A stretch of DNA of 64,000 nt. It comes from an uncultured Acidobacteriota bacterium (lineage in GTDB: Bacteria; Acidobacteriota; Vicinamibacteria; Vicinamibacterales; JAKQTR01). Within the stretch, counting starts at the first letter, position 1, and every line of letters begins with the position of its first letter. The notes below the pieces were generated by a model. The model saw only the letters and a list, made by a program, of their open reading frames with translations. It was not told where the DNA came from and did not search any database. Of the stretch, positions 38,331 through 44,968 are shown in pieces. Both the position numbers and the translations under genes were made by a program. The stretch is taken from the NCBI GenBank assembly GCA_963700065.1, contig CAVOWJ010000005.1, forward strand, positions 620,953-684,952, read 5' to 3'.

Positions 38331-39728
38331 GTGGCTCCTGGCTCCAAGACCGTCCTCGTCGTCGACGACGACGAGGGGATGCGCGACACGCTGACGGCCA
38401 TCCTGCGCCGCGACTACCGCGTGCTGCGCGCGGCCACGGGCGAGATCGGGCTGTCCATCCTCGACCGCGAAACCGTGGACGTCGTGCTGCTCGACGTGCG
38501 GCTGCCGGGCATGGGCGGCTTCGAGATGCTGCAGGAGATCAGGGAGACGCAGCGCCTCGTCGAGGTCATCATGATCTCGGCCATCAACGAGGTCGAGACC
38601 GCCGTCCGCGCCATGAAGCTCGGCGCCTATCACTACATCACCAAGGACTTCGAGTACGACGCCGTGCTGTCGCTCGTCCGCAACGCGTCGGACCGCACCG
38701 ATCTCCACCGCAAGGTGATGTCGCTGAGCGCCCAGGTGGCCGACGATCGCGACCGGCCGTTCATCACGGGCTCGAGCCGCGCGATGCGCGAGATCCTCGA
38801 CCTGGTGCGCAAGGTGGCCGGCCTCGACACGACGGTGCTCATCCTCGGCGAGAGCGGCACCGGCAAGGAGCTGCTGGCCCGCATGATCCACCGCGAGTCG
38901 GCCCGCGCCGACGGCCCCTTCATGCCGGTCAACCTGGCGGCCATCCCCGCCGACCTGGTCGAGTCGGCGCTGTTCGGCCACGAGAAGGGCTCGTTCACCG
39001 GCGCGGTGCGCCAGCAGATCGGGAAGTTCGAGCTGGCCGACCGCGGCACGCTGTTCCTCGACGAGATCGGCGAGCTGAAACCCGACGTGCAGGCGAAGCT
39101 GCTGCGCGCGATCCAGGAGTCGGAAATCGAGCGGGTCGGCGGCGGCCGCCCCATCCGCGTGAACCTGCGGATCATCGCGGCCACCAACGTCGATCTCGAG
39201 AAGGCCGTGCGCGACGGGCGCTTCCGCGAGGACCTCTACTACCGGGTCAGGGTCATCCCGATGCAGGTGCCGCCGCTGCGCGAGCGGATGGAAGACCTCG
39301 ACGCGCTGGTGACCTTCTTCCTGGGCCGCTACAACACGAAGTTCAGGAAGCAGGTGCTGGGCATCGAGCCGTCCGCCATGGAGGTGCTCGGGGCCTACCC
39401 GTGGCCCGGCAACGTCCGCGAGCTCGAGAACCTGATGGAGCGCCTGGTGGCCGTCAGCGAGGGCGACTGGATCGGCGACGAGGACCTGCCCTACGAGTTC
39501 CACCTGGCGAAGCTCGTCAGGCCCGACGAGACGACCGAGGGCCTCTTCGACCGCGCCTGCGAGACCTTCGAGCGCAACTTCATCCTCAAGACGCTCGAGC
39601 ACGAGCGCTGGAACGTGACGGCCGCGGCCCGCACGCTGGGCATGCCGCTCAGCACGCTCAAGTTCAAGATGGACCGCCTCGATATCCGCCAGATCGCCCG
39701 CAAGCTCCGCCGTGCAGGCCCGGCCTGA
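38331..39728 (+). CDS. Sigma54-dependent response regulator (NtrC family: REC, AAA+, Fis HTH)
   Basis: [15 protein letters not shown]...[13 protein letters not shown]. Walker A GESGTGKE. Sigma54-contact loop [11 protein letters not shown]-terminal [26 protein letters not shown] start with GAAAGGA upstream. Confidence 0.9.
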
Positions 39729-40002
39729 CCCTTGCAGGCTGCGTGGGTCAGCGACGAATCTGAACCTTGGGGGCGTCGCAGAAACTGCAACGGGTGTCTC
39801 GCTCTGATGTGGCAGCTGCCGCCACGTGTCTCCATTGTGGACACCGACGCGCACGGGCGTCTGCTGGCAGGATGCACCCACCATTCACGAGGCGCTTTCG
39901 CGTCATAATCGCTGCGTTCAAAGGGTCTCGTCGGCACGCGGCGCGCGGCGGCCCGCAGGGTCCGGCCGCCCCGGCCGGGGCTGCAGCCCCTCCCGCCGCC
40001 GC

Positions 40003-43184: not shown

Positions 43185-44968
43185 GCACGCTGCGCGTCCG
43201 CTTCGCGCTGATGCTCGCCACGGCCGCCGTGGTGCCGCTGCTCACGTACGGGGCGGTCTCGGTGTACTCCCTGCGCGAGAGCACGCGGCGCACGGTGACG
43301 GAGGGCAACATCAACCTCGCGCGGCAGGTGGCCGAGCAGGTGCGCCGCTATGTCGCCACCAACCTGCAGATTCTCGACGCGCTCGCCGCCGATCTCGACA
43401 GCACGGGGCTCGATGCGGCGCAACAGGATCGGATTCTCAAGAACTACGTCCTCCGCTTCCCGGAGTTCCGTGAACTGACGGCGTTCGACGCCGCAGGGCG
43501 CCCCGTGGCCACCAGCCGGCTGGGCGCGCCAGGCGTCCGCATCCCCGGCGCCGACGCGGTCGACCTCTACGGCGCCCGGATGTCGCCGGTGCACGTCGAC
43601 GACGACCTCCTGCCCACGGCGCTCGTGGCCGCGCCGGTCGGCCGCGGCGGCAGGCAGGCTGGCTGGCTCGTCGGCGAGTTCAGCATCGAGGAACTGTGGC
43701 GCCTGACCGGGCGCATCCGCGTGGGCGCGTCGGGCTACGTCATGGTGGCGGACCCGCGCGGCGGCCTGCTGGCCCACGGCAATCCCGAGCAGCGCTCGAC
43801 CGTTGCGCGCGGCGAGAGCCTCGCCGGTGACCCGATCGTGAAGGCGCTGCTCGGCGCCGCGCCCGGGACGCCGCAGGTCGTCGAGCGGCAGGGCCGGGGC
43901 GGCGTGCCCGTGGTCGCGGTCGGCATCCGCGTGCCGGAACTCGGCTGGATGGTGCTGGTCGAGCAGCCCGCCCGCGAGGCGTTCGCCGCGGCGCGCCGCC
44001 ACGAGCGTGATCTCATCGCGGCCATCAGCCTCGCGCTGCTCATCATGCTGCTCGCGGGCCTGGTCTGGGGCCGGTCGCTCATCCAGCCGATCCGCGAGAT
44101 CATCCGCGGCACCGAGGCCATCGCGGACGGCCGGCTCGACGAGCGCGTCCGCGTCACGACGAAGACCGAGCTGGGGCGGCTCGGCGAAGCGTTCAACACG
44201 ATGGCGGGCCGCCTCGGCGAGCTCCAGGAAGACGTGCGGAAGCAGGAGCGCCACGCCATGTTCGGCCGCGTGGCCGCGGGCCTGGTCCACGACCTGTCGC
44301 ACCCGTTCAAGAACGTCCAGAACAACTGCCGGCTCGTCGTCAAGATGCACGACGACCCGGAATACCTCGAGCTGTTCAAGCGCACGACCGACCGCGAGTT
44401 CGCCCAGGTCAAGCGCGTGTTCGAGGATCTCCGCAACATCGCGCGGCCGATGCCGATGGAGCGCTTCCCGCTGGACCTGAACAAGCTGGTGTCGGACGTC
44501 GCGGAGTCGATGCGCGCCAACGCGTCGGCCGCGGGCCTGACCATCGACCTGGATCTCGCCGCTGACACCCTCTACGTCGAAGGCGACATGTTCGCCCTGA
44601 GCCGCGTGTGCCGCAATCTCATGATGAACGCGATCGAGGCCACCGCGCCGAACGGGCGCATCACCCTCAGCACCGCCTCCGAGAACGGGCGCGCCGTGCT
44701 GCGCGTCGCCGACACGGGCTGCGGCATCCCGGCCGACCGGCTCGACACGATGTTCGAGGACTTCAATACGACGAAGCGCCAGGGCCTCGGCCTGGGCCTG
44801 GCGATCACGAAGAAGATCGTGGATCAGTCGGAAGGGACCATTGCCGCCACGAGCGTCGTGGGCGCGGGCACGACCTTCGCCGTGTCGCTTGCACGGGCCC
44901 CAGCGCCGGCGGAGGGAATTCCCGGCGAGCCTGGCGGCGAGCCGGCCGACTGGCCGGCGCCGGTGTAG
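43181..44968 (+). CDS. Sensor histidine kinase (TM, Cache-like periplasmic domain, TM, HAMP, HisKA, HATPase)
   Basis: The ATG overlaps the SBP stop (ATGA 43181-43184). HAMP IQPIREIIRGTEAIADGRLDERV. H-box AAGLVHDLSHPFKN. N/G boxes NLMMNAIEA, VADTGCGI and GLGLGLAI. Confidence 0.9.
   Translation: MSTLRVRFALMLATAAVVPLLTYGAVSVYSLRESTRRTVTEGNINLARQVAEQVRRYVATNLQILDALAADLDSTGLDAAQQDRILKNYVLRFPEFRELTAFDAAGRPVATSRLGAPGVRIPGADAVDLYGARMSPVHVDDDLLPTALVAAPVGRGGRQAGWLVGEFSIEELWRLTGRIRVGASGYVMVADPRGGLLAHGNPEQRSTVARGESLAGDPIVKALLGAAPGTPQVVERQGRGGVPVVAVGIRVPELGWMVLVEQPAREAFAAARRHERDLIAAISLALLIMLLAGLVWGRSLIQPIREIIRGTEAIADGRLDERVRVTTKTELGRLGEAFNTMAGRLGELQEDVRKQERHAMFGRVAAGLVHDLSHPFKNVQNNCRLVVKMHDDPEYLELFKRTTDREFAQVKRVFEDLRNIARPMPMERFPLDLNKLVSDVAESMRANASAAGLTIDLDLAADTLYVEGDMFALSRVCRNLMMNAIEATAPNGRITLSTASENGRAVLRVADTGCGIPADRLDTMFEDFNTTKRQGLGLGLAITKKIVDQSEGTIAATSVVGAGTTFAVSLARAPAPAEGIPGEPGGEPADWPAPV

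Follow-up and report, generated by a model that had tools for sequence, protein, structure and literature searches.

A predicted sigma-54-dependent radical SAM/SPASM peptide module coupled to a periplasmic binding protein and a histidine kinase in Vicinamibacteria

Cell–cell signalling by peptides is textbook knowledge for Gram-positive bacteria, where streptide (strABC, Shp/Rgg quorum sensing) is a short peptide modified by a radical S-adenosylmethionine (rSAM)/SPASM enzyme under the control of cell–cell signalling. To our knowledge, peptide signalling is barely documented in diderms, and for the Acidobacteriota, dominant in soils and sediments, almost no signalling or chemistry of ribosomally made peptides with post-translational modifications (RiPPs) has been characterised. 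The regulators of methanobactin operons are extracytoplasmic function (ECF) sigma/anti-sigma factors, AioR of the arsenite-sensing system is a sigma-54 activator, and we know of no binding-protein/kinase/regulator sensor for a ribosomal peptide. The methanobactin operon includes a trio of the TonB-dependent transporter MbnT, the OppA-like binding protein MbnE and the exporter MbnM (PMC7558416), and in AioX-AioS-AioR arsenite is sensed by a binding protein together with a kinase, AioR being the cognate regulator (PMC7565993; PMC5908839). Here, we analyse a block of five genes at 38331–44968 of a 64,000-nt stretch of DNA (the window) from an uncultured acidobacteriotal member of the Vicinamibacteria, in which a peptide maturase gene and a 30-codon open reading frame (ORF) stand between the genes of a sigma-54 activator and of a binding-protein/kinase pair. 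We lean towards a reading in which the modified peptide is secreted, is detected in the periplasm either as such or loaded with a metal, and thereby exerts feedback on its own production. All five genes lie on the + strand with short or overlapping junctions, and the tight co-directional block described in the original prediction, which was made from the sequence alone, was recovered with all of its listed parts:

38331–39728, + strand: NtrC-family sigma-54 activator/response regulator of 465 aa with a GTG start (Pfam and NCBIfam matches)
39776–39825, + strand: two palindromic candidate enhancer sites (upstream activating sequences, UAS), TCGCAGAAACTGCAA at 39776–39790 and GTGGCAGCTGCCGCCAC at 39809–39825
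40004–40018, + strand: candidate sigma-54 (-24/-12) promoter GGAACGCCCCTTGCA, a pattern conserved upstream of related maturases
40045–41488, + strand: maturase with a predicted RiPP recognition element (RRE), radical SAM and SPASM domains, 480 aa after discounting one extra base at 40287/40288
41485–41577, + strand: putative precursor peptide gene, 30 aa, leader MKVKVLK..., core CPWMITVPPESGK, with homologous ORFs in relatives
41620–41682, + strand: conserved RNA hairpin 3' of the peptide gene, free energy about -41 kcal/mol, with compensatory changes
41535–43184, + strand: family-5 periplasmic solute-binding protein, a probable lipoprotein (SBP_bac_5 match; true start uncertain)
43181–44968, + strand: sensor histidine kinase with a periplasmic dCache domain between two transmembrane segments, HAMP and an AtoS/NtrB-like core (Pfam and NCBIfam matches)

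The wiring of the block is conserved. Among Vicinamibacteria-type loci whose flanks are long enough, the maturase is followed by the binding protein in 62/62, the binding protein by the kinase in 39/39 and the regulator by the maturase in 62/66, and a Shine-Dalgarno-preceded ORF of 28–35 codons lies just downstream of the maturase in 73 of the 83 related loci with a complete maturase 3' end. The association of the maturase with all four partners thus holds among its homologues. In nearly all Vicinamibacteria-type loci the block is located between lpd and HU-QueF, and this fixed place points to vertical inheritance. A census with one genome per genus, in which the carriers were split by likeness band, found carriers in about 100 of 247 Vicinamibacteria genera (roughly 40%) and weaker relatives in Desulfobacterota, Omnitrophota, Nitrospirota, UBA10199, Spirochaetota and others, so that relatives extend to at least six phyla besides the Acidobacteriota. 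A SBP_bac_5 domain was encoded within 4 kb of the maturase in 21/24, 66/69, 72/153 (far relatives) and 3/9 cases by likeness band, compared with fewer than 3 at random places; for Sigma54_activat within 6 kb, the respective values were 21/24, 66/69, 60/153 and 3/9, compared with 15 at random.

The maturase matches Radical_SAM in Pfam (PF04055, E 7e-17). In an alignment of maturases with 30–97% identity, the cysteines of the CX3CX2C motif (CNFACDYC in the translation; C103, C107 and C110) are invariant, and so is the seven-Cys SPASM pattern C-x13-G-x4-C...C-x2-C-x5-C-x3-C...C (C369, G383, C388, C426, C429, C435, C439 and C455). A Pfam scan at E 0.01 gave neither a SPASM nor a PqqD match in this protein, and its motifs and fold were checked by the alignment and by an AlphaFold (AF2) model of P0001, a homologue 97% identical to the window maturase (mean pLDDT 80.6). 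The model begins with a beta-beta-beta-alpha-alpha-alpha domain of the RRE type (residues 7–87), followed by a TIM-like core, a disordered insert (residues 293–341) and a SPASM domain. Its best structural match in Foldseek was CteB (E 1e-20, TM-score 0.63–0.71), others being TigE, SuiB, ChlB and anSME, and by sequence, too, the best match was CteB. The N-terminus is predicted to be a PqqD-like RRE that binds the leader. The invariant motifs, the model and the CteB-like fold bear out the rSAM/SPASM enzyme with an RRE-like N-terminus that had been read from the sequence.

The best curated family for the maturase is TIGR04280, the geopeptide radical SAM maturase, against which the window part scored 247.3 bits and P0001 260.7 bits (cut-off 400). 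The next NCBIfam matches were CefB, TIGR04463, PapB and FlmE/OhkG, and the model of PapB-type ranthipeptide maturases (NF047865) gave 114 bits, below its cut-off of 340. The enzyme belongs to a sister family of the uncharacterised geopeptide maturase, below the family's own cut-off. An identity as an anaerobic sulfatase maturase was rejected, since TIGR03942 gave only 59.4 bits (cut-off 349) and the best models were those of peptide maturases. Vicinamibacteria-type maturases carry an insert of about 50 residues, containing cysteine, between the radical-SAM core and SPASM (the disordered insert of P0001; about 40921–41070 in the window), which is absent from geopeptide-type enzymes.

The peptide ORF overlaps the maturase stop codon (ATGA) and has the Shine-Dalgarno sequence AGGAGGAG in front, and the homologous ORFs of the related loci support the 30-codon gene that had been noticed at this position. 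The consensus leader is M-K-I-x-V-(I/V)-K-K. The core opens with a Cys that is invariant in an alignment of 24 sequences, followed by P-W-x-(I/V)-D-(D/E) in most loci and forming CPWMIxVPPE in the subclade of the window. The codons vary synonymously, with a ratio of non-synonymous to synonymous variation (pN/pS) of 0.51 among 15 distinct sequences, and the window ORF is the only such ORF in the genome. An NCBIfam scan of the 30-aa ORF gave no family even at E 10, the geopeptide precursor model TIGR04229 (cut-off 30 bits) included. The enzyme probably modifies this adjacent peptide. Codons 18–21 of the ORF (41536–41547; TGC CCG TGG ATG for C-P-W-M) show no nucleotide difference among 15 distinct sequences of the subclade, even though Cys and Pro have synonymous codons. 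Codon bias at 70% G+C may explain this, or else an additional constraint, e.g., an overlapping start of the binding-protein gene. Tandem precursor genes were seen in some loci (L010, 9616–9862; L014, 8450–8673; L161, 3031–3263; L168, 1652–1885), the copies being identical in L168, two residues apart in L161 and divergent in L010 and L014. Peptides without Cys were found only in the latter two, as one of two copies each (YPWLVDVPPDD and RPWLVDVAVE).

Upstream of the maturase, the regulator combines REC, Sigma54_activat (E 1e-68), an AAA lid and HTH_8, a Fis-type helix-turn-helix, in Pfam, and the GSFTGA loop (GAFTGA type) is readable in its translation, so that the assignment as an NtrC-family activator with a sigma-54-contact loop stands. 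Its GTG start is preceded by GAAAGG (Shine-Dalgarno), and its length of 465 aa is the same as that of the homologue in L007. The NCBIfam models for AtoC, NtrC and similar regulators scored high, all under their equivalog cut-offs. The spacer between regulator and maturase (316 nt) contains two palindromes and GGAACGCCCCTTGCA, which ends 27 nt before the maturase ATG at 40045. The palindromes, about 180–230 nt upstream of the promoter, are the UAS candidates. Each locus has such a pair directly behind the regulator stop codon; it occupies the same position in L007, L009 and L020 of the window's subclade (TYGCA-N5-TGCRA type), and a second subclade has GGCCAA-N4-TTGGCC pairs at the equivalent position. 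This is what co-evolving enhancer sites would look like, and they may be bound by the regulator encoded next to them. Strict matches to the UAS palindrome number only 5 in the 5.5-Mb genome.

A strict promoter pattern, GG[ACT]A[CT]N5TTGC[AT], was scanned on both strands over 586 kb from 21 loci. It gave 20 matches, 18 of which are located within 200 nt upstream of a maturase, in 18 of the 21 loci, which is a placement beyond chance. The three remaining loci comprise L009 with a near-variant, L013, which is cut by a contig end, and L010, which has neither promoter nor regulator. Genome-wide, the pattern has 42 matches, and only the one at this locus has a UAS-like palindrome upstream; a search of the genome for a second promoter-plus-UAS pair as a sign of a regulon found none, with a crude definition of the UAS. 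Since rpoN is present in the genome and both the GG-N10-GC element and the palindromes upstream are conserved, the promoter candidate noted 27 nt before the maturase has gained in weight, and the block is a predicted sigma-54-dependent operon with a conserved -24 GG/-12 GC element at the right spacing. The other two strict matches lie at equivalent places on the - strand, at about 33849 of the window and about 1920 of L007, and may mark another sigma-54 promoter that has nothing to do with this one; in L007, the match stands a short way upstream of a gene for an ECF sigma factor. In L010, L017 and L024, a divergently transcribed M14 peptidase gene replaces the regulator and lpd upstream of the maturase, and, together with the lack of the promoter pattern in L010, these loci may be variants under different control.

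An RNA hairpin with a 22-pair stem (about -41 kcal/mol) follows the peptide gene. In 13 members of the subclade its pairing holds in 85.7% of cells versus 31–50% when the partners are slid, and 13 of the 22 pairs show compensatory changes, values attained by 0 of 500 shuffles. At the equivalent position, the sister subclade has a hairpin followed by a T-run, i.e., an intrinsic terminator. Because the hairpin separates them from the sensor genes, the maturase and peptide genes probably form the main induced transcript, and transcription of the binding-protein and kinase genes would depend on read-through or on another promoter. The single operon that had been proposed thus probably holds for the maturase and peptide genes behind the promoter, whereas the sensor genes may be only partly included in the induced transcript. 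Metatranscriptome contigs from one run (X18) extend over 41392–41616, a stretch that includes the maturase 3' end and the complete peptide ORF; one contig has no mismatch at all. They end just before the hairpin, unlike a DNA contig from another run, which continues past it. These ends are a weak hint of an RNA 3' end, as the material consists of contigs from one study, which by themselves show neither expression level nor RNA end.

The binding protein matches SBP_bac_5 (E 3e-60) and ends at 43184, where its stop codon overlaps the kinase start by ATGA. The kinase comprises dCache_1, HAMP and HATPase_c (Pfam), two membrane segments and an AtoS/NtrB-like catalytic core; the family-5 binding protein overlapping a Cache/HAMP kinase was thus read correctly in the first place. 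Among proteins of solved structure, the binding protein is closest to GsiB/YliB, NikA and opine binders. Its neighbourhood has no genes for an ABC permease or ATPase, and the coupled pair without a cognate importer fits a sensor of the LuxPQ, TorTS or AioXSR type, in which the binding protein would contact the kinase. A candidate lipobox Cys is encoded at 41712–41714. Canonical starts in frame are limited to GTG at 41535, which lies within the peptide ORF about 60 residues before this Cys, and TTG at 41679, only 11 residues before it; a CTG near 41661 would yield MRRSVPRLAVAGALSAFAC, similar to the canonical signal MRRSLFLALQLASAC of L026. The same start problem exists in L007, and the hairpin overlaps the stretch 41535–41714.

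More distant loci have a short Shine-Dalgarno-preceded ORF upstream of the maturase, whose leader is related and whose CC is invariant. With 40.5 bits, the peptide of Geotalea exceeds the cut-off of the geopeptide model TIGR04229 (30), and the leader is where the window-type and geopeptide profiles can be aligned (hhalign E 1.7e-4, probability 50%). In Omnitrophota L036 and Auribacterota L033, a regulator, a TonB-dependent receptor, a family-5 binding protein, the peptide, the maturase, an ABC exporter and a dCache kinase are encoded on one strand. In comparison, Nitrospirota L037 has a receptor, the maturase, a PF04392 binding protein, a HAMP kinase and a regulator; Geotalea L056 has this same gene set split over two strands, and L028 stands in between, as its single-Cys peptide is encoded downstream of the maturase and a receptor is present along with a family-5 binding protein. 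Across 33 distant loci, many of them truncated, the receptor was present in 22, the binding protein in 22, the kinase in 20, the regulator in 15 and the exporter in 7. The relatives thus keep peptide and maturase together with kinase and sigma-54 regulator despite a swap of the binding-protein family (PF00496 or PF04392). Canonical sigma-54 promoters were located before the peptide in L033 and before the binding-protein gene in L036, the only two loci in which this pattern was found upstream of CC-type peptides; because the peptide directly follows the receptor gene in most CC-type loci, their promoter is placed further upstream. Such a gene set, with receptor and exporter, is what one would expect if the peptide were to exit the cell and come back into the periplasm.

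The proposed loop would proceed as follows. The phosphorylated NtrC-type regulator would bind the two palindromes downstream of its own gene and open the sigma-54 promoter, giving a transcript that encodes the RRE/radical-SAM/SPASM enzyme and its putative 30-residue substrate. The enzyme would then bind the MKIxV(I/V)KK leader and modify the core around the invariant Cys (C-P-W-x-(I/V)-...), most likely by a thioether-type cross-link, and the hairpin after the peptide gene would limit or stabilise the transcript. The product would leave the cytoplasm, and either the product itself or its metal complex would be bound in the periplasm by the lipoprotein binding protein, which would signal via the dCache kinase to the regulator and close a positive loop. 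The sequences show the gene content, the conserved wiring, the promoter, the hairpin and an intact maturase, and they make as strong a case for regulator, promoter, enzyme and substrate as sequence can; the modification chemistry, the export and the role of the peptide as the ligand of the binding protein are what we infer. The loop has two sub-readings, namely a pure autoinducer and a metal-loaded peptide.

An important question is whether the peptide and the sensor belong to one circuit. Several observations argue for this link: the linkage persists across phyla, gene orders and binding-protein families; in relatives, the operon also includes an exporter and an outer-membrane receptor; the binding protein comes without importer genes; and the module parts evolve at different rates, with the peptide core tracking the binding protein. 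By mean pairwise distance, the regulator (0.28), the maturase (0.35) and the kinase core (0.40) have diverged less than the periplasmic domain of the kinase (0.50), the binding protein (0.60) and the peptide core (0.64), the last two being the fastest-evolving parts of the module. The peptide-core distance tracked that of the binding protein when kinase or maturase distance was controlled (partial r 0.61–0.83), and it tracked no other part when binding-protein distance was controlled; with 15 related loci and partial Mantel tests, which are liberal for related sequences, this correlation serves as a hint only.

Some observations weigh against the loop. Neither an exporter nor a TonB-dependent receptor or a leader protease is encoded within 7 kb in any of 21 Vicinamibacteria-type loci, and neither a cleavage nor a secretion motif can be recognised in the peptide. 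The absence of exporter and leader protease genes noted at the outset is thereby extended to the surroundings of these loci, whereas some distant relatives have an exporter as part of the operon. The hairpin or terminator lies between the peptide and binding-protein genes, so the sensor genes may not be induced alongside the peptide. The correlation between core and binding protein could reflect shared fast rates alone. A complex prediction for binding protein, periplasmic kinase domain and peptide gave scores of 0.06 and 0.03, which speak neither for nor against binding. The self-inducing RiPP loop of the original prediction is thus supported in its wiring, promoter and maturase, whereas sensing of the peptide by the binding protein is still conjectural and a metallophore-type reading is equally compatible.

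Alternatively, what the binding protein and the kinase detect might be an outside solute with no relation to the peptide, such as a metal complex, a small peptide or an opine-like compound. The modified peptide would then be only an output of the system, for instance an antimicrobial, a protectant or an intracellular cofactor, and not its signal. The closest characterised relatives of the binding protein (NikA, GsiB and the opine binders) bind nickel complexes, glutathione or opines, not long peptides, and dCache domains commonly bind small metabolites; the missing exporter and the hairpin that splits output genes from sensor genes also favour such a division. However, the sensor set has been kept with peptide and maturase across at least six phyla, through changes of gene order and a swap of the binding-protein family, which is hard to explain by an unrelated cue. 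Moreover, the receptor and the exporter share an operon with them in relatives, and the divergence of the binding protein tracks that of the peptide core. Overall, we judge an external solute to be an unlikely cue, albeit one to be taken seriously.

In a further alternative, the Cys-containing peptide would be a metallophore that, like methanobactin, chelates a metal outside the cell and whose loaded form is sensed or passed on, so that the module would report or acquire metal rather than respond to cell density. The invariant core Cys (CC in geopeptides), the acidic residues after it and the position of the binding protein in the NikA/CntA-like part of family 5 would suit this role, and the receptor and periplasmic binding protein beside the precursor in relatives parallel MbnT/MbnE/MbnM (PMC7558416). 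Against it, no importer permease is encoded that would serve delivery into the cytoplasm; only one Cys is present in the window-type core, and none in a few second copies; no metal-responsive regulator or binding site was found; and the nearest maturase families make thioethers, which would consume the thiol. We therefore consider a metallophore to be improbable.

Taken literally, the sequence has a change of frame in the maturase at 40287/40288, with the first 81 residues in one frame and the other 399 in the next. The homologues read ...ERAALESYFAAFR... across this junction, where tcgGtac in the window contains an additional G. Close homologues, about 120 of them from metagenomes and metagenome-assembled genomes (MAGs), are intact with about 480 aa. 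The public contigs over the site, three of three and from three runs, have no extra base: a 203-nt contig that has a single mismatch and derives from the sample of the best holder, one from a wetland metagenome and one from a metatranscriptome. Related long-read MAGs have many comparable breaks. The one-base correction near 40287 that had been called for is thus justified, and, as the covering contigs lack the base, the homologues are intact and related MAGs break likewise, the extra G is taken to be an assembly error and the locus not to be decayed. That the maturase is a pseudogene in a decayed locus, as the +1 shift required by the sequence as given would have it, is hardly credible in view of these three lines of evidence. 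In the MFD MAGs L022, L023, L026, L027 and L032, several module genes appeared as split tblastn matches, and indel errors are seemingly common in such assemblies.

Returning to the loop, we also put forward a broader proposal, as a real possibility that we would stop short of expecting: an exported rSAM-modified peptide, re-admitted via a TonB-dependent receptor in the full form of the module and read by a binding-protein/kinase/sigma-54 sensor, would be the autoinducer of an undescribed class of circuits in diderms (Acidobacteriota, Desulfobacterota, Nitrospirota, Omnitrophota and others), with the geopeptide system as the founding branch and the CPW type as a derived one. Promoter, enhancer sites, precursor, enzyme and sensor are all identifiable at this locus and supply the parts of a testable loop. 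If true, it would give a first handle on communication or metal sensing in hard-to-culture groups, assign a function to the orphan geopeptide family and offer a new rSAM modification together with a compact inducible sigma-54 switch.

The block region has a G+C content of about 70%, in an assembly of 5.5 Mb in 15 contigs. It is flanked by housekeeping genes, namely those for a TPR protein, dihydrolipoamide dehydrogenase and E2 on the opposite strand upstream, and those for HU, QueF, Smr and an M14 peptidase downstream. An Rfam scan of 38000–45400 gave no match, and consensus scans of the block for sigma-70 promoters and terminators yielded nothing useful.

Literature searches on geopeptides or this wiring found no publication, in agreement with the earlier remark that the arrangement is not recognisable as a characterised system, and the sensing circuit appears undescribed for rSAM/SPASM RiPP peptides; the NCBIfam geopeptide models are hypothetical equivalogs, and the window proteins fall below their cut-offs. 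Among the characterised systems, streptide differs in its Gram-positive host, in its signal SHP, a different peptide that is imported by Opp and sensed in the cytoplasm, and in the absence of a sigma-54 regulator, a kinase or periplasmic sensing. AioXSR, LuxP-LuxQ and TorT-TorS likewise encode a periplasmic binding protein without its own transporter together with a membrane kinase; however, they sense arsenite, autoinducer-2 or trimethylamine N-oxide, use other binding-protein families and have no tie to a ribosomal peptide and its maturase. The thioether maturases CteB/SCIFF, PapB and CefB share with the window enzyme the domain order, the fold, Cys-containing substrates and the NCBIfam matches (CefB, TIGR04463 and PapB), whereas the scores are far below the cut-offs, the precursors are unrelated and none of those systems is coupled with a set of binding protein, kinase and sigma-54 regulator. 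In methanobactin, as here, a ribosomal Cys-containing peptide is encoded beside a family-5-type binding protein, with receptor and exporter added in the relatives of the window locus. In contrast, modification is by MbnBC there and by a predicted rSAM/SPASM enzyme here, and a two-component sigma-54 pair takes the place of the methanobactin regulators; the block consists of five genes only, with neither MbnB/MbnC nor MbnT, no TonB-dependent receptor being found within 7 kb in the 21 loci.

The closest system is that of the geopeptides (TIGR04229 and TIGR04280, each a 'hypothetical equivalog'). The window maturase remains under the 400-bit cut-off and the window peptide is unmatched by TIGR04229; the geopeptide core has an invariant CC as opposed to a single Cys (CPW...); the peptide gene lies upstream of the maturase in geopeptide loci and downstream in the window; and Geotalea pairs a PF04392 binding protein with a HAMP-only kinase, whereas the window has family 5 and a dCache kinase, with no TonB-dependent receptor in the block. 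Nevertheless, the RRE/rSAM/SPASM maturases are homologous, the short precursors have similar leaders, and the peptide–maturase pair of Geotalea L056 has neighbouring genes for a HAMP kinase, sigma-54 regulator, periplasmic binding protein and TonB-dependent receptor. Overall, the module is the Vicinamibacteria form of a widespread, uncharacterised geopeptide-type module.

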